Positions 18,185 to 56,237 of a stretch of 64,000 nt of DNA are shown piece after piece. How positions within the stretch are numbered: the stretch's first letter is position 1; each line of letters begins with the position of its first letter. The stretch is from Tequatrovirus BCH953P4: sequence record OZ035789.1. The stretch is one strand, 5' to 3'. Below the pieces are notes generated by a model. The model was not told where the DNA came from, searched no databases, and worked only from the letters and a program-made list of their open reading frames with translations. The translations under genes and the position numbers were made by a program.

Positions 18185-18225
18185 GATTCATTATACCACG
18201 TTTTAACGTGAAGCATTATACCCTA
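18185..18225 (-). promoter_or_regulatory. Putative MotA-dependent middle promoter of uvsY
   Basis: coding strand reads ATGCTTCA (MotA box-like) then CACGTTAAAACGTG palindrome then TATAAT; approx. coordinates. Confidence 0.6.
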
Positions 18226-25854: not shown

Positions 25855-25910
25855 GTTCCTCATGTTATGTCAGTAAGATTACTATAACACAACACGAGGG
25901 ACTTGTAAAC
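25855..25910 (-). promoter_or_regulatory. Repeated promoter/hairpin cassette, copy 1
   Basis: coding strand GTTTAC-N17-TATAGT with 13-bp inverted repeat whose 3' arm contains the GAGG Shine-Dalgarno; 50/53 identical to copy at 41657..41712. Confidence 0.55.
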
Positions 25911-27967
25911 TACATTTTGAACTTTTTAGACATTCCGTTGATGTTAACCAAAGAAGCTAAGATTTGAGAAACTTCGTTTTCCTCTTCTTTTGATTCTTCT
26001 ACAAGGAATTGATTAAATCCAGTCATTGGACGAACTTCACCAGTTTCCATCAAATGATCGCCATCATATACTGATTCCTCTAATTGTTCAGAAGGAGGAA
26101 CGATTGTACCTTCGATTAGATACTTGTTATAAGCAGTTTCTTTCATAAAGTACGTACTTACTTTATTAATCTTCAGTAAAATTCCACGCGGTAGAATAAC
26201 TTCAGCTTCTGATGGAAATCCTGTTAAATGACCTGGAACGATAACTTTGATTCGCTCAGCTCCTTTAATTACCATACCCACGCTAGTTTCAGCATTTTCA
26301 TTAGCGTATGTAGAATGACTACCCATATGCATCAAATCTTCTGCATCAACGGAACCTTCTCCTTCACCAGAAAATACTGCGCCGGAATCATCTAGAGCCA
26401 TATAGTTTTTACCATGCTCACCGAAGATATTTGGTTTAAGCGATGTAGATACGAAGTTCTTGAAATAGAACATTTTGTTTTCAATGTTATGACGCAAAGT
26501 TTTAAAGGTAACTTCTTGTCCACGGTAAAGTGTAGTTCCTGGAGGAAGAACTGAACCTTTAGCGAATGCAGAATCCAACGTCTCGATATGCTTAATAGCA
26601 CGTTCCATATATTCTTCGCGGGTAGAATCAGGTTTACCCAAAAGGAATGAGTTCATTTCAACATATGAATCTGCACAATAATCTTCAATTACATCAGATT
26701 CAGCTTGAGTTAATCCTTTTGGAGTTACTTCAGTACTTGCATATTCATATGCCTGGGTAGCAGATTCATTAATCAATTTATAAATGCCATTCATTACAAA
26801 TTGAATAATAGCTGTCTTTTCATCTGGCGTAGCTTTAGAACCTTTAACCAAATCATTGATAATTTTCTTAATAACATCAAAGCTGTTAGAAATATTAATA
26901 TCAGCAAGATCGCTTAAAATTTTATCAGTTTTATAATCAAAGAATTCTTTATTTTTTAAATATTCTTGAGAACCTTGATACGATATATCGCTCTGCAACT
27001 TGATGGATGGATCACGTAAACGTGCATGGGCTAATGCAATATGATTTCGGAAGTTTTCTAGTTCATAATCGTTAGATTTAAAACGAGAAGCACTTCTCAT
27101 ACCACCGATAGCTCCTTTGCTGAAGTTTGAACCAATCTGAATAACGCCAGAGTTCATTGGTCCTTCTGCTTTATATACCGGAACTTTAGATTCAAACTCT
27201 TGATATTTCTTGGCAGCGAAGCTATCACCCTGAAGTGAAGCATCAACAGTAGAATATTGAGCTTGTGCTGCTAATCGACGACTAATTTTAGTTTTCTGAA
27301 TAACAGCTTGATCCGTGCGCTTATCATTTTCTAAAGCAATAGAAGCAGCAACAGCGACAGCTTTAGGAACAGCATTTCCTGTTTTAACGTCTACATAAAC
27401 ATCACCAACCTTTGATTCAACTTTTGTGAATAACTCAGTTGAAATAGGAGGTACACCTGGAATGTCTTCTAAATTGGCATTTTTACGGTAAACCATAATA
27501 TATGCATACTTTTTATCATAGTCCCAGATTTCCTTTAAAAGAACATATCGACCTGCTCCTTTGGTACGTACTAAACGGTCAGCAATAACTTGCATTTGAC
27601 GAGCAGCGCCATTTGTTTTACTCTTTAGTACACGGAATAAGCACGCGTCAATTTTATACTGCTTCATTGTTTGAAGAGCAGTATCAAAAACAGCATTAAT
27701 GACGCCAATTGGATTTCCACCCAAGTTTCTAAGCTTAACCAGTGATAATTTCTCGTTGACACCTATCATTACGATATGCATCATTTTATCGCCCGGCTTA
27801 ACGTTTTTATTTGTATCACCACCGGAGGTGTATGTACAAAATCTAAATCCAGGAAGCACGCTTTCTTCGCCGGCTTGAATAGCAAAAATTTGAGGTATTT
27901 TATGCTTAGGATTTAAGTTAACAACCGGCGCCGAAGCGCCGTCAAATAATTCTGTAATAAGTTCCAT
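25910..27967 (-). CDS. Alt-like ADP-ribosyltransferase paralog (full length)
   Basis: 685 aa; N-terminus MELITELFD...NLNPK.KIPQIF and R-S-ExE motifs (YRGQ, FVSTSL, EAEV) shared with Alt; divergent middle. Confidence 0.8.
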   Translation of the reverse strand: MELITELFDGASAPVVNLNPKHKIPQIFAIQAGEESVLPGFRFCTYTSGGDTNKNVKPGDKMMHIVMIGVNEKLSLVKLRNLGGNPIGVINAVFDTALQTMKQYKIDACLFRVLKSKTNGAARQMQVIADRLVRTKGAGRYVLLKEIWDYDKKYAYIMVYRKNANLEDIPGVPPISTELFTKVESKVGDVYVDVKTGNAVPKAVAVAASIALENDKRTDQAVIQKTKISRRLAAQAQYSTVDASLQGDSFAAKKYQEFESKVPVYKAEGPMNSGVIQIGSNFSKGAIGGMRSASRFKSNDYELENFRNHIALAHARLRDPSIKLQSDISYQGSQEYLKNKEFFDYKTDKILSDLADINISNSFDVIKKIINDLVKGSKATPDEKTAIIQFVMNGIYKLINESATQAYEYASTEVTPKGLTQAESDVIEDYCADSYVEMNSFLLGKPDSTREEYMERAIKHIETLDSAFAKGSVLPPGTTLYRGQEVTFKTLRHNIENKMFYFKNFVSTSLKPNIFGEHGKNYMALDDSGAVFSGEGEGSVDAEDLMHMGSHSTYANENAETSVGMVIKGAERIKVIVPGHLTGFPSEAEVILPRGILLKINKVSTYFMKETAYNKYLIEGTIVPPSEQLEESVYDGDHLMETGEVRPMTGFNQFLVEESKEEENEVSQILASLVNINGMSKKFKM

Positions 27968-33479: not shown

Positions 33480-33673
33480 ACTAATTCCTTTAATCCGTAG
33501 ATAGGAGATAATTCATCACCCATACGAAGGTCTTCATTTCCATCTACCCAGGAAACAATATAAGCCTCTTTTATTTGAATACCACTCCATTTAAATGGAG
33601 GTAGAACCTTAGAAATTAATCCAGGTATACCAACTCCCTTTAATTCAACAGTTTGACCTAAAAAGAATTTCAT
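33476..33673 (-). CDS. Hypothetical protein
   Basis: 65 aa ORF, overlapping stops/starts. Confidence 0.55.
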   Translation of the reverse strand: MKFFLGQTVELKGVGIPGLISKVLPPFKWSGIQIKEAYIVSWVDGNEDLRMGDELSPIYGLKELV

Positions 33674-33960
33674 TAGAACCTCATCTGAAAACCGTGCGAT
33701 TTAACATTACCGCCGCCAATATCAGAAATGTTAATTTCACGCGCAATTGAAGGGTCAATGTCAATTTCGCGATTGAGTTTAGTGATAGCTAAAGTATCAC
33801 GCCCATTTACAGTACGAAACTCTAAAGGACAAACCACATCAACGTAGTTTTTAATCGATTCGCTAGTAGGTTGCAAATGTGCAGGAAGGTCTTTAGGCGA
33901 CTTTGAGAAAACTACTTCGCAGAAGTTTTTACGGGTATCAAAATAAGTAGTCATAAACAT
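33673..33960 (-). CDS. Hypothetical protein
   Basis: 95 aa ORF. Confidence 0.6.
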   Translation of the reverse strand: MFMTTYFDTRKNFCEVVFSKSPKDLPAHLQPTSESIKNYVDVVCPLEFRTVNGRDTLAITKLNREIDIDPSIAREINISDIGGGNVKSHGFQMRF

Positions 33961-34001
33961 AACATTTTCCTCAGTAAGGGGCCAAAGCCCCTCATTTTAT
34001 T

Positions 34002-34367
34002 TTAAATATCAAATTCGTTAAGAACTACATCAAAGATTGCTTCAAGATGCTCAGGTTTAGCTCTGTTACTCAGAATATGACGAATCCAAGTTTTAACCAA
34101 AAGCTTGCGATTAGCACCATTCCAGCAAGGATGAGTCCCTAAATCACGTTGACGAAAATCATCATCCAGAGCGATTTTGAAGTTTGAACCTTCCATTGTG
34201 ATTGAAACCGTGATTCCATTTTCAAATCGCATATAAACGTAATTAGGAGTCATATACTGCTCAATTTCGCATACTGATCCATTTTGATGTTTCCAAAGGC
34301 AAATAGTATCAATAGAACCTGCAATACAATTAGAAACATATTTACGTTCAAAATTGATGTAGTTCAT
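34002..34367 (-). CDS. Hypothetical protein
   Basis: 121 aa from ATG with GGAG RBS (track ORF begins at upstream TTG). Confidence 0.6.
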   Translation of the reverse strand: MNYINFERKYVSNCIAGSIDTICLWKHQNGSVCEIEQYMTPNYVYMRFENGITVSITMEGSNFKIALDDDFRQRDLGTHPCWNGANRKLLVKTWIRHILSNRAKPEHLEAIFDVVLNEFDI

Positions 34368-34394
34368 TTTATTCTCCAAGATGTTTAATTGCGG

Positions 34395-34430
34395 TACAGG
34401 TATATAATATCATATCCTGTACCAAAGTAA
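34395..34430 (-). promoter_or_regulatory. Early-type promoter GTTTAC-N17-TATTAT with 8-bp inverted repeat flanking the -10
   Basis: coding strand GTTTACtttGGTACAGGatatgaTATTATataCCTGTACC; approx. coordinates. Confidence 0.5.
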
Positions 34431-34434
34431 ACAA

Positions 34435-34767
34435 TTATTTTACTACTTTCCAATGCTGCATGTCAAGTTTACCAACTTTTTTCATCTTCTCAATTAAGCG
34501 TTCGGCACGTTGGCGAGCTGTAACATAATACCATTCACCTAATTCATTTTGTTCAATTTTTCCAACGATTACTGTATTCAATTCATAAATCCAACCAGTA
34601 AAGAAATTATGAACTTGAATTGTAAAGGTGAAATCTGTTCCCATACCTTCTGTTGTTTCTACTTCAATAATATCACCTTCAACTGCCATTAAGAACCACA
34701 TAGTTTCATCATATTTACCATTGAAGCATTTAGTTTTAACTGTAGCGTTCAGATTAATCGTTTTCAT
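34435..34767 (-). CDS. Hypothetical protein
   Basis: 110 aa; GGAG RBS; promoter-like GTTTAC-N18-TAGTAT upstream. Confidence 0.6.
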   Translation of the reverse strand: MKTINLNATVKTKCFNGKYDETMWFLMAVEGDIIEVETTEGMGTDFTFTIQVHNFFTGWIYELNTVIVGKIEQNELGEWYYVTARQRAERLIEKMKKVGKLDMQHWKVVK

Positions 34768-34854
34768 TTTATTCTCCTTTGTTTGTGTAAGATAATACTA
34801 TCACAAAGGAACCGTACTGTAAACAACTTTGTGCAATCTTTGGAAAATAAAAAA

Positions 34855-34872
34855 GGACTCCCGAAGGAGTCC
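34855..34872 (-). terminator. Hairpin GGACTCC-CGAA-GGAGTCC with T-run
   Basis: perfect 7-bp stem and tetraloop, followed on minus strand by TTTTTTATTTT. Confidence 0.65.
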
Positions 34873-34877
34873 TTAAC

Positions 34878-35054
34878 TTATGCTTTCTGCTTACCAAAAC
34901 GAGAAGCATCATCTCGAAGAACCGCACGTGCTCGGCGCATGATCTTCTCAACAGTTTGATTGATACGAGAGTTCGACCCACGCTTGTAGCCAGCGCGTTT
35001 AGAATCACCAACTTTCTTTTCAACTGCTTTCTTTGCTTTAGCTTGTTTTGCCAT
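34878..35054 (-). CDS. Small basic protein
   Basis: 59 aa from ATG (MAKQAKAKK...); K/R-rich. Confidence 0.5.
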   Translation of the reverse strand: MAKQAKAKKAVEKKVGDSKRAGYKRGSNSRINQTVEKIMRRARAVLRDDASRFGKQKA

Positions 35055-35342
35055 TATAAATTCTCTTTTAAATGAAAATGCAGGACTTATTGGCATTGCC
35101 TGCGCAAGCCCTCAAGGGGAACATAGGTTTTTGGATATTTAACGACCAGGATAACCATAAACCCGTCATCATACCACCAAGACTTACACAGATAACACTT
35201 TTCTGACGCATGATAGTAACATTCAAGAGGTACACCGTAAAACTGCCGGGGTCTTAAAACTATAATGATTCGCAAATCATTAATCAGACAGTTCGACGGC
35301 TCCTCGATTTAGCTCACACTAAGGCAGTGAATCTCCAATAAA

Positions 35343-35591
35343 TTACTTCAATGTTACCACAAAGTGACGAACTGCTTTTCGTGCAGCAGAAGCCAGAGGC
35401 TTAGCATATTTAAGTTCATCTTTTTCCTGAAGCTCAGCAGCTAATGCAGTTTGAGCAGGATTCAGATGTTTGAAATAACGCAGGATTTCAAGAGCTTCGG
35501 CTTCAACATCAATAGATGCGCCATAGTTTTCGTGACCATTATTCCATGCGTTTCGTTGCAGTTCAAGAGCGTGTTGTAATTGTTTAATCAT
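35343..35591 (-). CDS. rIII: rIII lysis inhibition accessory protein
   Basis: 82 aa; sequence recognised. Confidence 0.9.
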   Translation of the reverse strand: MIKQLQHALELQRNAWNNGHENYGASIDVEAEALEILRYFKHLNPAQTALAAELQEKDELKYAKPLASAARKAVRHFVVTLK

Positions 35592-35730
35592 TTAAAAATT
35601 CTCGTTAGAGATTAAAACTCGGTAGTCACGTTCTTCTGAATTTCATCTTCTTTCGACAGATCTCTCAGTTGTAGACTACCACATAGAATTGTTCGGTTAA
35701 CTTATTATTCCGACACCCAATTCATATTAT

Positions 35731-35738
35731 TATTTATA
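35731..35738 (-). promoter_or_regulatory. Late promoter TATAAATA upstream of rIII
   Basis: minus-strand TATAAATA just after gene 31 stop. Confidence 0.5.
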
Positions 35739-36074
35739 TCACTTATAAAGACACGGAATAGCTTTATAGTGACAGGTAACAAATTTTTGTTTAATTTCTT
35801 TTGGCTGCTTAAGACCCAGAGCTACAAAAGGATGCGGAACATTTCGAATTTGACCAACTGGAAGAGAAGTCAAATCACCAACTTCGCAGAAACCTTCAGG
35901 AACATCAGGACCGACAGAGTGAACTACACACAGTTCAGGAACTTCACCTTGAACACGTTTACCGATAATAAGTCCTGATTCTGTAACTTCTTCATCACCG
36001 GCTTGTGCAGGTTCAGAAACTAAAATAACATATTCACCGACAGCACGAATTGGTAGCTGTTGTACTTCAGACAT
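35739..36074 (-). CDS. 31: Co-chaperonin gp31 (GroES analogue)
   Basis: 111 aa; sequence recognised. Confidence 0.95.
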
Positions 36075-36130
36075 CGTTTTTCCTTTTTGTTAACAGATGA
36101 ATTAATAATAACAAATAATTCTTAAAGCAT

Positions 36131-36439
36131 TTATTTACCAATAAATTGAAGCAAATGCTCAACTTTCATACCATTAACGGAAATCAATTTGTCAATAGAA
36201 AAACCTCGCCACGCACCAAGCTCAACATCAAATACTGGAATCATATCAGTAGATTCTTTCCGGGTAGATTCAGTCAATTTACCAGTTTGCATGGTTGGCA
36301 TAAAGTCTGCGTCGCGAGTACCTTTCATAGTACGAATAGTACCATCAGACTTTTCAAAAACTACGTTTGAAACACCCATGGACAATTTAGTTTTCAAAAT
36401 TTCACGAATTGCTACTTTCTGCTCAGTTGTCAGTTTCAT
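36131..36439 (-). CDS. Hypothetical protein (31.1 position)
   Basis: 102 aa. Confidence 0.65.
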   Translation of the reverse strand: MKLTTEQKVAIREILKTKLSMGVSNVVFEKSDGTIRTMKGTRDADFMPTMQTGKLTESTRKESTDMIPVFDVELGAWRGFSIDKLISVNGMKVEHLLQFIGK

Positions 36440-36676
36440 TTATTTACCTATTACAGTTTTAATATGAGTTGTTCCACGTTCTTTAAGGGTGGAAAGTAAT
36501 TTTTGGCATTTTTCTAAATCAGATTTCCAACTATATGGTCTATCAATACTAGTCCAATCAGTTTTATAATACTGTTTCCATTTAGAGAAAAAATATTTCT
36601 TATACTCTACAGCAAATGAGATGTTCTCATTAGAATAAGAACTAATTGCTGTGAGCTTTACCAAACGAAATTTCAT
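36440..36676 (-). CDS. Hypothetical protein (31.2 position)
   Basis: 78 aa. Confidence 0.6.
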   Translation of the reverse strand: MKFRLVKLTAISSYSNENISFAVEYKKYFFSKWKQYYKTDWTSIDRPYSWKSDLEKCQKLLSTLKERGTTHIKTVIGK

Positions 36677-37257
36677 TATTCACCACAGAATTCGTTGATA
36701 TTTTCCCAATTTAACTTATTCAAGTTTTTCTTAGGAACATTAAACACTTCAATACCCGCATTTCGCAGAATATCATCCCAGCCAGGTTTATTTTTATCGT
36801 ATGTTTCACAATAAACCAGCTTTTTAATACCAGATTGAGCTATCGCTTTTGCGCAATCTGGACAGGGAGAAAGTGTTACATACATAGTAGCACCTTCAAT
36901 TGAAGAACCGTTTCGTGCAGCAAACAAAATCGCATTTAGTTCAGCATGAATTTCATTTTTAGACGACCATTCAGAGTGAGCGCTACGATGTTCTTTCGCC
37001 AAGACAAAGCGATCAGTTGAACCAAATGATACGCATTCAGGCTTATGGCCTTGGATGATAGTATGTTTAGGTTTATTCAGCAACCAACCTTGCTCAGCGG
37101 CATAATCACAACAGTTCACACCTCCTGCGGGTGAACCATTATACCCAGTAGAAATAATACGTCCATTCTTTTCAATTACTGCTCCTACCTTCCAGGAGCA
37201 ACATTTTGATTCTTGTGATACTAAATATGCAATTTGAAGTACTGTACTCGCTTTCAT
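36676..37257 (-). CDS. cd: dCMP deaminase
   Basis: 193 aa; zinc motifs HAELNAI and PCPDCAKAI. Confidence 0.95.
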   Translation of the reverse strand: MKASTVLQIAYLVSQESKCCSWKVGAVIEKNGRIISTGYNGSPAGGVNCCDYAAEQGWLLNKPKHTIIQGHKPECVSFGSTDRFVLAKEHRSAHSEWSSKNEIHAELNAILFAARNGSSIEGATMYVTLSPCPDCAKAIAQSGIKKLVYCETYDKNKPGWDDILRNAGIEVFNVPKKNLNKLNWENINEFCGE

Positions 37258-37592
37258 TTCATAATCACCAGATAAGCAGATTTAGCAGTTTCAACACGAT
37301 AAATTTCATGACGAAGTTTAGTTATACTTTTAATAACAGAACTAATTATATTCTGTCCGTCTTTAAAGCGGTTTTTCTTATCAATAAAAATTGCGCCAAC
37401 CATCTTTTTGTGAAGCTCAACTGGATACTTCGTCACAATAATAGCATCATATACAGAAGGATGAATACTATTTACTAGAGTGTCATTCATTAAAGTTATT
37501 CTAATGAACTGTGCTGTTTCAGAGTCAAGCGCTCTATGATCGCCAGTATCATTTTCAAGACAATTATCAATTATATCAGTTAAATTCATCAT
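37254..37592 (-). CDS. Hypothetical protein (cd cluster)
   Basis: 112 aa. Confidence 0.6.
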   Translation of the reverse strand: MMNLTDIIDNCLENDTGDHRALDSETAQFIRITLMNDTLVNSIHPSVYDAIIVTKYPVELHKKMVGAIFIDKKNRFKDGQNIISSVIKSITKLRHEIYRVETAKSAYLVIMK

Positions 37593-37825
37593 AGTACGCC
37601 ATACACCCTTTGTGCTTCAACTAATCCATCAAAATCCAATTTAAGATGTGTTATTTGATCACCATCACCTGGATTCACAATTACTAATACTGAACGAGGA
37701 GTTTCGGTAATAACACGAACCGATGTTTCAGGAAATCGTTCAGAAACCTTATTTACCAATTCCTGTGCAAATAGCTTAACTTTTTCTTGGAATTCTTTAA
37801 CAGTAATCGGTTTTTCACTTAGCAT
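37589..37825 (-). CDS. Hypothetical protein (cd cluster)
   Basis: 78 aa. Confidence 0.6.
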   Translation of the reverse strand: MLSEKPITVKEFQEKVKLFAQELVNKVSERFPETSVRVITETPRSVLVIVNPGDGDQITHLKLDFDGLVEAQRVYGVL

Positions 37826-38361
37826 GTTGATCCCAGCTCCTTACTTTCAACGTTTTTAACTAATTTGACAGAAACTAATTCAGCATCTTGAGTAATCATT
37901 ACCGGGCCTTCTTCATACTCTTCAAGATATTCTAGAGCTTTCTTTTTAGCTTCTTCCTTCGTATCAGTTTGAGCATAGATATAAAACATACAACCAGTAA
38001 TACCTACTACTTTCCATTTAATTTCTTTATCAGTTTTAATTTCAAATTTACTGACAGAATCATCTTTTTGAACTTCTTCGAAAAAATAATATTCTGACAT
38101 ATAAGTAATTGAAAATAATGGGCTATCTTTATAGCATTCACCCATTACATCAACAGCTTTATACCAGTAATCGTCAATTTCACGTTTAATGCTAATAACA
38201 TTTTTCGCGGGATCAATTTTTACTTTAAATGAATTTTCCCCAATAAACTGAGCAATTCGTTTATTAGCCCCGCAAGTTTCATTAAAAATATCTTTATATC
38301 CAGCTTTAAAGCGATAAACCTTATCTTCTTCAAACCATTCGCTCATTTTCAATTTCCTCAT
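37819..38361 (-). CDS. Hypothetical protein (cd cluster)
   Basis: 180 aa (or 175 aa from second ATG with AGGAAA RBS); GTTTAC-N18-TATTAT promoter-like motif upstream. Confidence 0.65.
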   Translation of the reverse strand: MRKLKMSEWFEEDKVYRFKAGYKDIFNETCGANKRIAQFIGENSFKVKIDPAKNVISIKREIDDYWYKAVDVMGECYKDSPLFSITYMSEYYFFEEVQKDDSVSKFEIKTDKEIKWKVVGITGCMFYIYAQTDTKEEAKKKALEYLEEYEEGPVMITQDAELVSVKLVKNVESKELGSTC

Positions 38362-38408
38362 TTGTTTGGTAGAGCCATAATATCACAACTCTACTGTAAA
38401 GTAAACTA

Positions 38409-38684
38409 TTAAATCGCTTTGAATTCCGCAGTTTGAGATTCAAAGCGAATGTCGCCTTTGATAACTAACTCAGCATCAAGACCGAATACGACAATGATAT
38501 GCGCGGAACCTGGATACAGCGTAATGGCAACAGAATCCACCTGGTCTGGAAGCAAAGTGTTTAATACATGAGTCACTTGAGCATGGATTCGAAGTTCGGC
38601 TGCGTTATCAAGCTTTTCAAACATATTATTAGCGATAATTTGACTAAACACTACTTCTACGATTTTAGAATAAGTCGGAAACAT
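38409..38684 (-). CDS. Hypothetical protein (cd cluster)
   Basis: 91 aa. Confidence 0.6.
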   Translation of the reverse strand: MFPTYSKIVEVVFSQIIANNMFEKLDNAAELRIHAQVTHVLNTLLPDQVDSVAITLYPGSAHIIVVFGLDAELVIKGDIRFESQTAEFKAI

Positions 38685-38686
38685 AT

Positions 38687-38887
38687 TTACCTCACATAAT
38701 TTTCTTCAAGCCAATCAATAACATCCAAAGCGTTATCAAAAGTTGAACCATCTACTTTGTCTTCTGTTTCATAATCAAGAACATCTAAGCCTACTCTTCC
38801 GTCAACAATAGGCCATAAACAAAATAGATATTTCTTTTCTTTTTCAATTTTATCACAAAGACGATAAATCTTTTCTATGTTATTCAT
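38687..38887 (-). CDS. Hypothetical protein (cd cluster)
   Basis: 66 aa. Confidence 0.55.
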   Translation of the reverse strand: MNNIEKIYRLCDKIEKEKKYLFCLWPIVDGRVGLDVLDYETEDKVDGSTFDNALDVIDWLEENYVR

Positions 38888-39076
38888 AAGTTTTCCATGG
38901 TAAAGGCAGTTTAGTTTTCTTTACTGTTAGTTCAACATCAGGATTCTTTTCTCTCAATTTAAGACATTCCTCCCAAGCTCTGATTTCACTAGTGAATACA
39001 CAAAATTGCCCATTACTAGTACCGACTAAACCACTATTTACAATAATAATAGCCCAAGTTTCATGATGCCACGCCA

Positions 39077-41654: not shown

Positions 41655-41656
41655 AA

Positions 41657-41712
41657 AGTCCTCATGTTATGTCAGTAAGACTACTGTAACACAACATGAG
41701 GGACTTGTAAAC
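41657..41712 (-). promoter_or_regulatory. Repeated promoter/hairpin cassette, copy 2
   Basis: GTTTAC motif plus 13-bp inverted repeat covering GAGG RBS of alc; near-identical to 25855..25910. Confidence 0.55.
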
Positions 41713-51064: not shown

Positions 51065-51400
51065 TTAAACAGACTTTTTCACAATTTTCCAATCAGCTTT
51101 AAACTGCTCGACGTCAGAATGGTAAATCCAGAATCCTGCGCTTTCTCCGTCTTCATAAAGAGGACATCCATCACATTCATCTTCCCACCCCATATCACGT
51201 AAAAGGTGTTCAGCTTTTTCAACAAGCTCAGAATCTTTACCGATGATATTAAAATACCATTTACCTCTAACTTCTGAATCTTTAATGCTCTGACGTTGTA
51301 ATCTCATTTTATTCTCCTCATGTAGTTGATAGGGTAATAGTATCACACTACTACCCTGTTGTAAACAATTATTTTTAAATTTTATCGAGCCACTTACCAA
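51065..51400 (-). CDS. Hypothetical protein (frd cluster)
   Basis: 111 aa max; start uncertain. Confidence 0.55.
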   Translation of the reverse strand: MVSGSIKFKNNCLQQGSSVILLPYQLHEENKMRLQRQSIKDSEVRGKWYFNIIGKDSELVEKAEHLLRDMGWEDECDGCPLYEDGESAGFWIYHSDVEQFKADWKIVKKSV

Positions 51401-51671
51401 GCTTAATCATTTCTTTAGTAGCCTTTTCCATACTTCTGAACTTAACCAATAGAGGATAGGTATCGACACCCATAACTAAACTGGTTACAAGACTGTGTTC
51501 ACCCACAAGCCATAACGAATACGTTTGAATATCGAGCCCGTAATTTCTGTCTTTGTGGACCCGTACACCCATCACTTCAAATTTCTCACTAGCTTTTTCT
51601 ACCGCATCCAGGAAATCATCTTTAGTCATATTAGGCCTTAAAAGTTTTTCGCAAAAGTTCAATGATTTCAT
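51375..51671 (-). CDS. Hypothetical protein (frd cluster)
   Basis: 98 aa. Confidence 0.55.
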   Translation of the reverse strand: MKSLNFCEKLLRPNMTKDDFLDAVEKASEKFEVMGVRVHKDRNYGLDIQTYSLWLVGEHSLVTSLVMGVDTYPLLVKFRSMEKATKEMIKLGKWLDKI

Positions 51672-52040: not shown

Positions 52041-52268
52041 TTATTGTTCAATCAGTCCCATGTAAAATTCTGCGTCTTCAGAATCCATACCATCACAATA
52101 TTCATTAGCCATAAAGCGGGTAAGGTCTTCAAGAGGACCTTCAATAACGATTTGAATACTCCAAAACTTAGAATCTTGTACGCTTGTGATACTAAGTTCA
52201 GGATAACGATTACGAATAATCTCTTCAATATATTCAAAATCAACGATGTCAATATCAACTTTAGCCAT
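52041..52268 (-). CDS. Hypothetical small acidic protein
   Basis: 75 aa from MAKVDIDIV; promoter-like GTTTAC-N18-TACTAT upstream. Confidence 0.5.
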
Positions 52269-52373
52269 ATTATTTTCCTCTTTAATCATCAGCAGTATTG
52301 CCGATAGTTGTATAGTACCATGGAAGGACAAGGATGTAAACTGTTTTGTGAAAAAAATTTTTGAAATAAAAAA

Positions 52374-56175: not shown

Positions 56176-56237
56176 ATGAACCTCGTTCAATTAGTGAGAT
56201 TTCTATTATATACCATCCAAATCTTAAAGTAAACAAG

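Follow-up and report, generated by a model that had tools for sequence, protein, structure and literature searches.

Composite elements that combine an early promoter with a stem-loop were described by Arbiol et al. (2010) in RB49 and phi1 as 'promoter-early stem-loops' (PeSLs) (PMC2839356). The published PeSL consists of an A/T-rich tract, an early promoter, a stem-loop, an SD and an ATG, and the stem-loop is most often located between the promoter hexamers or overlaps the -10 (PMC2839356). Comeau et al. (2014) extended PeSLs to PST/T4 and nt-1/KVP40, with a promoter consensus of TTTACW-N17-TAYWAT for PST/T4 and stems that are variable and AU-richer (PMC4122927). The authors favour functions in termination and in recombination that shuffles genes (PMC2839356, PMC4122927); translation or occlusion of the SD is discussed in neither paper, and both are without statistics, a strand-bias test or a covariation test. 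Promoter/inverted-repeat elements had also been reported by Repoila et al. (1994) to flank the internal-protein (IP) genes of T-even phages (via PMC2839356). As far as that account goes, these too are early promoters of T4 whose AT-rich stem-loops vary in size, but they concern the IP loci only and were read as recombination linkers, whereas the feature described here is genome-wide.

For a different group of T4 genes, comprising e, 49, I-TevI/II/III, segB and soc, translational control by a promoter located inside a hairpin has been documented or implicated (PMC3014915, PMC2988022), and the late-promoter hairpins of e and I-TevI are proven (PMC3014915). In elements of the e/I-TevI type the SD lies in a helix whose 5' strand is upstream of the start site of a nearby promoter, and long transcripts are silent while promoter-proximal transcripts are translated. 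The promoters involved are late (gp55; TATAAATA) or middle internal promoters that provide a late switch-on, unlike the early sigma-70 promoters considered below, and in reviews of T4 the hairpins listed as sequestering an SD all belong to late or middle internal promoters (PMC3014915, PMC2988022).

The window, which is the whole stretch of 64,000 nucleotides of Tequatrovirus BCH953P4 (OZ035789.1) analysed here, aligns with about 96-157 kb of T4 (AF158101) and belongs to a T4-like genome; the 3 kb around the focal site are 97-99% identical to many Tequatrovirus genomes. The nrdB group I intron of T4 with I-TevIII (T4 138457-139058) is absent from this phage (window 43833-43836). An earlier note on the window had pointed to GTTTAC-type promoters on the minus strand with short inverted repeats around the -10, and all of the repeats that it listed are present on that strand. 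The pattern GTTTAC-N16-19-TAnnnT occurs at nine sites where 3.4 are expected, in all nine cases on the minus strand, and a PWM derived from T4 accepts seven of them; together with the focal site, which has a 17-nt spacer, this leaves eight credible early promoters. Six of the eight are surrounded by a significant hairpin with its 5' strand in the spacer and its 3' strand past the -10, and the sense RNAs of these six cassettes fold with -11.1 to -25.6 kcal/mol (z -2.3 to -6.8). An SD and ATG follow 3' of all eight cassettes, and an A/T-rich tract precedes the -35 at the focal cassette and similarly at the others. The window thus contains the sequence-level features of a PeSL, namely spaced early hexamers, an A/T tract, a stem-loop and an SD with ATG, in the same order. 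The likeness extends to the TTTACW-N17-TAYWAT consensus, which matches the window sites, and to the G-T pairs noted in published stems. PeSLs also sit beside small genes of unknown function and indels; in the window, genes 30.7 and 30.8 are hypothetical and indels adjoin three cassettes but not the focal one. The arrangement of promoter and stem-loop is therefore already described in kind, as PeSL, although the RB49 stems are built from a G-run and a C-run whereas those in the window are AU-richer, promoter-specific and without U-tracts. No Rfam family scored above threshold across the whole window.

Repeat frequencies were obtained by assembling the whole T4 genome and applying the promoter rule of the earlier note, which gave 45 sites; each was scored by the longest stretch of its spacer that is perfectly complementary to sequence in the 25 nt 3' of the -10. 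Perfect repeats of at least 6 bp occur at 20 of the 45 T4 sites, compared to 4.3 expected from the downstream regions of other promoters and 2.9 from shuffles, so the frequency exceeds the three to four sites expected in the comparison with shuffled controls that the earlier note had called for. Repeats of at least 7 bp are found at 13 sites (0.8 expected) and of at least 8 bp at eight (0.1-0.2 expected), and reassigning the downstream regions among the promoters gives a permutation p of 0.0002. Within the window, seven of the nine pattern sites have a repeat of at least 6 bp where 0.7-1.2 are expected (permutation p about 0.0007), so that the rates amount to 44% in T4 and 78% in the window as against 6-10% in control pairings. 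The excess persists when paralogues are collapsed by retaining the weakest member of each cluster (14/31 vs 7.4%, p about 1e-8), and SD-ATG sites without an upstream GTTTAC carry a repeat in 7.4% of cases (n = 54). In a sliding frame the excess is sharpest with the gap placed on the -10 (offset 0), where, for a 14-nt downstream arm, 31% of sites reach 6 bp and 20% reach 7 bp, compared to 0-13% and 0-4%, respectively, beyond +/-12 nt. Between 21 and 24 of the 45 T4 sites fold significantly better than shuffles that preserve the -10, which leaves about half of the early promoters without such a hairpin. Promoter-bracketing repeats recur in RB69. The repeats are real, strongly enriched and centred on the -10.

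The focal cassette is the early promoter of gene 30.7 (34392..34432, minus strand) and was characterised by sequence and folding. On the early (minus) strand it is situated in the gap that separates the 30.8 stop codon from the 30.7 start; the products of both genes are hypothetical. Its -35 GTTTAC (34432-34427) and -10 TATTAT (34409-34404) are preceded by a 15-nt tract, agtagtaaaataatt, with 13 A or T residues, and the arms GGTACAGG (34423-34416) and CCTGTACC (34400-34393) bracket the -10 and form a core stem that is lengthened by ATAT/ATAT past a 1-nt bulge. The SD of gene 30.7, GGAG, is located at 34377-34374 and the ATG at 34367; the stem stops 15 nt short of the SD, which places the cassette in the SD-sparing class A defined below. 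The sense fold reaches -16.1 kcal/mol (z -5.46) and the antisense fold -15.0 kcal/mol, making the two strands nearly equal. The computed probability that the SD is unpaired is 0.83 on the cassette's own transcript and 0.81 on read-through RNA, so no pairing of the SD is predicted in the long RNA. Read-through across the site is to be expected, since 392 nt without a terminator-like site separate it from the 30.8 promoter upstream.

Conservation of the focal arms was followed in 24 orthologues representing 14 haplotypes, where only one of the 16 arm columns is variable, compared to six of nine in the non-hexamer part of the loop and 46 of 50 in the flanks; the arms are as constrained as the -35 and -10 hexamers. 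The sole variant is a C to U change that yields a G.U pair, and the 24 orthologues contain no covariation in the arms. Comparison was extended to 23 related loci from viral and metagenomic contigs and to part of RB69, and the 22 of these loci that span the 30.7 promoter, found via gp30.7, provide no further variation in the arms. As there is no covariation and the fold is nearly equal on both strands, RNA and DNA levels are inseparable at this element, which may have a role at the DNA level, including that of an operator.

Two further promoter-like sites adjoin the focal cassette. Because the element is nearly palindromic, a mirror site, GTTTAA-16-TAATAT, faces the opposite way on the plus strand (34383-34410). 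A near-consensus sigma-70 site, TTGACA-18-TAAAAT (34437-34466, minus strand), with 11 of 12 matches, lies in the last part of gene 30.8, with 34 nt between it and the focal -35 downstream, and could be a tandem second promoter or due to chance.

The stems fall into two classes, depending on whether the 3' strand stops before the SD (class A) or includes it (class B). Class A is represented in the window by the cassettes of 30.7, the cd-cluster and the frd region, and in T4 also by those of ipI, ipII, ipIII, dmd and motB; the T4 scan finds repeats of 10, 14 and 8 bp at the ipI, ipII and ipIII promoters (73939, 65799 and 66498), respectively. The cd-cluster promoter (38369..38406, minus strand), an orthologue of T4 Pe133.3, has its -35 at 38406-38401 and its -10 TATTAT at 38382-38377. 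The GTAGAG/CTCTAC repeat that had been noted before the cd-cluster ORF is found at 38394-38389 and 38374-38369, and the fold amounts to -11.1 kcal/mol (z -3.1). The T4 GenBank record describes 14 bp at T4 133300-133313 (window 38375-38388) as the 'inverted complement of previously reported sequence', a correction said to concern the early promoter Pe133295. These 14 bp are exactly the loop between the GGTAGAG/CTCTACC arms, so in the earlier T4 sequence the loop was inverted, through an artefact at the hairpin or because that sequence represents a real inversion variant. The frd-region promoter (51331..51366, minus strand; -35 51366-51361, -10 TACTAT 51342-51337) contains the AGGGTA/TACCCT repeat at 51357-51352 and 51336-51331, again as claimed; here the spacer strand AGGGTAGTAGTG is paired to the -10 together with TACCCT (51336-51331), with a fold of -15.2 kcal/mol (z -4.0).

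Class B members in the window are the promoters of 30.8, alc and alt.-3, and those in T4 include regB, dexA, modB, denV, nrdC.9 and the ndd region. The 30.8 promoter (34774..34824, minus strand) has its -35 at 34824-34819 and its -10 TAGTAT at 34800-34795, and the partner of its spacer strand UUCCUUUGU is ACAAAGGAG, within which the SD is located (34779-34774); the fold is -12.1 kcal/mol (z -2.26). The repeat TTTGTG/CACAAA proposed for this site is present near 34805/34785, but a better pairing, TCCTTTGT/ACAAAGGA, covers the SD. At alc (41656..41712, minus strand; -35 41712-41707, -10 TACAGT 41688-41683) the stem is made up of AAGTCCCTCATGTT in the spacer and of AACATGAGGACTT, which includes the SD (41663-41660) with the ATG (41654) directly after it, and the fold reaches -25.6 kcal/mol (z -6.7). 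At alt.-3 (25855..25910, minus strand; -35 25910-25905, -10 TATAGT 25886-25881) the strand opposite the spacer is AACATGAGGAAC, with the SD (25861-25858) inside it, and the fold amounts to -23.0 kcal/mol (z -6.8). The alc and alt.-3 cassettes are near-identical, paralogous copies and correspond to the two '13-bp cassettes' of the earlier note, located at 41712 and 25910.

Two window promoters serve as contrast. The perfect hexamers GTTTAC-18-TATAAT (56197..56234, minus strand) are accompanied by a weak 6-bp repeat, AGATTT/AAATCT, and the hairpin at this site is like shuffles (-3.1 kcal/mol, z -0.03). The promoter with the highest PWM score (52312..52341, minus strand), of the 'acaactatc...' leader family, is hairpin-less (-6.0 kcal/mol, z -0.75, like shuffles) and provides an internal negative example. 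In its family (window 52268-52341, minus strand; T4 167086, 163673, 146875, 70696, 55384 and 27080) both an upstream tract, ttttttcacaaaac, and a leader of about 25 nt, acaactatcaactactgatac..., are conserved. Several members immediately follow UUCG-type terminators, and the family has the appearance of a second repeated promoter cassette.

A third arrangement, in which a hairpin or palindrome lies entirely within the spacer, is seen at T4 2458, 50973, 146875 and 55384 and at two contig loci (L011:17610, L012:5813). The hairpin CCACAaggaTGTGG has TGTGG, just before the -10, as its 3' arm, and ATAAAGCTTTAT is a 12-bp palindrome. Spacer-internal stems of at least 5 bp occur at 4 of 42 T4 sites against 0.6 expected, and these four are two paralogue pairs. 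The repeat of the uvsY middle promoter, CACGTT-AA-AACGTG (18197..18210, minus strand), belongs to this type. The sequence CACGTTAAAACGTG (18210-18197) does lie between the MotA box TGCTT and the -10 TATAAT, as had been stated, but it is a 6-bp repeat around AA and not the perfect palindrome for which it had been taken. The repeat is identical in sequence in T4, at 115398, and its hairpin is confined to the spacer.

The consequences of the two classes were computed as the accessibility of the SD on a transcript starting 7 nt past the -10 and on read-through RNA. A genome-wide T4 data set of start sites or 3' ends was not found in the literature. With the 5' strand of the stem within the spacer at the window cassettes, the cassette's own transcript would, by sigma-70 geometry, be without it, and because its start lies inside the hairpin only RNA initiated upstream could fold. 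In class B cassettes the probability that the SD is unpaired is mostly 0.4-0.96 for the own transcript and drops to about 0.00 for read-through RNA. For 30.8 the values are 0.96 and 0.00 and for alc 0.55 and 0.00, and for alt.-3 the read-through value is 0.00. In class A, shuffling the spacer lowers the accessibility of the SD on read-through RNA at 8 of 10 sites, which is a trend only. The same calculation returns an SD unpaired probability of 0.00 on read-through RNA for e, 49, I-TevI, I-TevII and segB, and own-transcript values of 0.85 for e and 0.84 for I-TevII, the only two where an exact TATAAATA was found and the value could be computed; soc as a positive control was not recovered by this simple calculation. 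Class B thus shares its computed signature with e and I-TevII. It differs from the e/I-TevI type in that the anti-SD strand is the spacer of the gene's own promoter and would confine translation to the first minutes, while the focal class A element differs in leaving its SD uncovered. Anti-SD 4-mers occur in 10 of 42 T4 spacers where 2.2 are expected and in 5 of 13 RB69 spacers where 1.5 are expected, and strong class B stems, 11-13 bp in length, are present in RB69.

The strand on which the stems form is indicated by their folding and their base pairs. Sense folds of the 45 T4 sites reach -11.6 kcal/mol compared to -8.9 kcal/mol for antisense folds, and the bias is retained when each strand is normalised to its own composition-matched shuffles (z -2.57 sense vs -1.66 antisense, p = 1.5e-4). 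G.U pairs number 42 in the significant sense stems as opposed to eight in antisense folds. A G.U pair corresponds to a mismatch in DNA and to A.C on the opposite strand, and the imbalance speaks for a helix in the RNA of the early transcript. Orthologous promoters add compensatory changes to this picture. The cd-cluster arms are GGTAGAG/CTCTACC in T4-type phages and GGTAGGAC/GTCCTACC in Mosigvirus, with two compensatory pairs and one U.G to C-G change among the orthologues, and 97% of the cells in their alignment are paired as against 19-54% in slid registers. The alc arms CCTCGTGTT/AACATGAGG correspond to TCTCCTCAT/ATGAGGAGA in Mosigvirus with the SD buried in both, the alt.-3 cassette of one contig locus (L009) has a 5' arm altered to fit its own 3' context, and the T4 paralogues 57990 and 20612 show compensatory and wobble differences. 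These changes come from few independent lineages, with about one clade split per promoter, and indicate that stem pairing is maintained in evolution. Taken in aggregate, the sense bias, the G.U pairs and the compensatory and wobble changes speak for the suggestion of the earlier note that the repeats are RNA structures on read-through transcripts, and the early-promoter repeats probably do fold into hairpins on such RNA.

It is proposed that the repeats are the stem-loop halves of PeSL-type composite early-promoter cassettes, which would be arranged as an A/T-rich tract, the -35 GTTTAC, a spacer of 17-18 nt, the -10, the SD and the start codon, and in which the spacer, and often the -10 too, is complementary to the sequence just 3'. 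RNA from the cassette's own promoter would start about 7 nt past the -10, within the repeat, as expected from sigma-70 geometry, and would therefore lack the 5' strand and stay open, whereas RNA from an upstream co-directional promoter would carry both strands and fold. Under this scheme, class B read-through RNA would be translationally silent and expression would come from the gene's own early promoter only. In class A the AU-rich promoter sequence would be locked in a local hairpin with the ribosome site left open, and such a stem would fit an insulating, stabilising or attenuating intercistronic structure. As a whole, PeSL-type cassettes with a hairpin on read-through RNA and this class A/B logic are considered the best explanation, and one that is held with moderate confidence; folding and function of the stems in vivo are predicted from their sequence. 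A more tentative proposal, put at somewhat below an even chance, is that this two-state logic is genome-wide and that the early-promoter spacer doubles as an RNA regulatory strand, either anti-SD or insulating. About a quarter of early promoters (among them alc, regB, modB, dexA, denV, 30.8 and alt.-3) would then have an anti-SD spacer, and their genes would be translated in the first minutes only and be silent on the abundant read-through and middle-mode RNA, while another quarter would have an insulating local hairpin and allow translation from any transcript.

The alternative that survives best, although it is unlikely, is that the stem-loops are attenuators or terminators of upstream transcription, with the cassette ending one transcript and starting the next. 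The reduction of lacZ expression by a PeSL stem-loop in RB49 equalled that by the rrnB T1 terminator (PMC2839356), and clear canonical terminators just upstream of T4 promoters lie mostly at the hairpin-less ones (5/6), which suggests that terminator and hairpin are alternatives to each other, but this anticorrelation is not significant (Fisher test). The promoter hairpins resemble intrinsic terminators such as the UUCG hairpin at 34874-34853 in being intercistronic and on the early strand, but they enclose the -10, their loops are larger, spanning 4-15 nt, and no U-tract follows any of them in the window or in T4, the next 8 nt being A-rich. A scan of 33500-39000 that does find the UUCG terminator calls none of the promoter hairpins, and the absence of a U-tract and of a scan call rules out an intrinsic terminator on sequence. 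As terminators, moreover, the SD-covering stems would be pointless.

Slightly less probable still is the reading of the repeats as DNA-level landmarks or substrates for PeSL-mediated, cassette-shuffling recombination with RNA folding as an incidental property. Mini-circles have been shown in RB49/phi1 (PMC2839356), and indels between the window and T4 adjoin three cassettes. At the cd-cluster cassette (38406) an inserted ORF of 520 bp fits exactly between the SD and the start codon of cd.2 (37825-38352), the alt.-3 cassette at 25910 is directly preceded by 1.7 kb of inserted sequence that includes alt-like fragments (25930-27619), and the surroundings of the frd-region cassette at 51366 are replaced relative to T4 (51319-51637). 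The near-identity of the alc and alt.-3 cassettes and the occurrence of a T4 motB-type cassette at another locus in Mosigvirus fit this reading as well. Homologous exchange, however, needs similarity between cassettes and not an intramolecular repeat, and the arms differ between cassettes; compensatory changes keep the pairing within each cassette, the G.U bias is strand-specific, and no indel adjoins the focal cassette in any of the 24 orthologues. A role in recombination can coexist with the RNA role. The motB cassette of T4 (7215; GGGACC/GGTCCC) recurs in the alc-pseT region of Mosigvirus and Gaprivervirus (L011:3303, L014:2698), where it precedes an unrelated ORF and has undergone a compensatory change to GGGAGC/GCTCCC, and is an example of a cassette moving between loci.

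An operator, at which a dimeric phage or host protein on half-sites across the -10 would control initiation, for instance in early shut-off, is very unlikely as the general explanation, for which the earlier note had also put it forward. The focal element comes closest to one, as its half-sites GGTACAGG/CCTGTACC are invariant like the hexamers, are without covariation and form a symmetric element that folds equally on both strands, and the mechanism by which T4 early promoters are shut off is still unexplained (PMC2988021). However, no half-site is common to the promoters. The arms differ at every promoter and GGTACAGG, which occurs once more in the window at an unrelated site, is found at none of the other window promoters, which makes a shared operator unlikely and rules out a common operator motif. 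The sense bias and G.U content of the stems in aggregate also argue against an operator, as do the orthologous stems that switch sequence yet stay paired and the one focal variant, a transition that preserves pairing as G.U. Read-through RNA structure is thus favoured over a common DNA operator in aggregate. Chance, in the sense of short repeats that are normal in AT-rich 50-nt stretches and were picked out by eye, could account for the 56234 repeat, which is indistinguishable from shuffles, and for a background of 6-bp repeats in control pairings, but as an explanation of the whole it has practically no probability left and is ruled out by the non-cognate, shuffled, paralogue-collapsed and non-promoter controls and by the position-specific excess in the sliding frame.

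The early-promoter anti-SD reading appears to be an extension of a known kind of control, and what appears to go beyond the literature consulted are the statistics that indicate selection for pairing on the sense strand, the division into stems that bury and stems that spare the SD, and the enrichment of anti-SD sequences in spacers. Two features of T4 early promoters are regarded as unsolved, the conserved information beyond RNA polymerase contacts and the curtailment of their activity within minutes (PMC2988021). With half of the early promoters embedded in predicted sense-strand RNA hairpins, a subset of which bury the SD, a post-transcriptional layer can be proposed that is cheaply testable. 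The finding also calls for practical caution, as spacer and initial-transcribed sequences would be constrained when these promoters serve as parts or when phages are engineered. If the two-state logic is true, it would provide the PeSL stem-loops with a defined post-transcriptional function and would extend the 'promoter inside a hairpin' device of late genes to the immediate-early genes.
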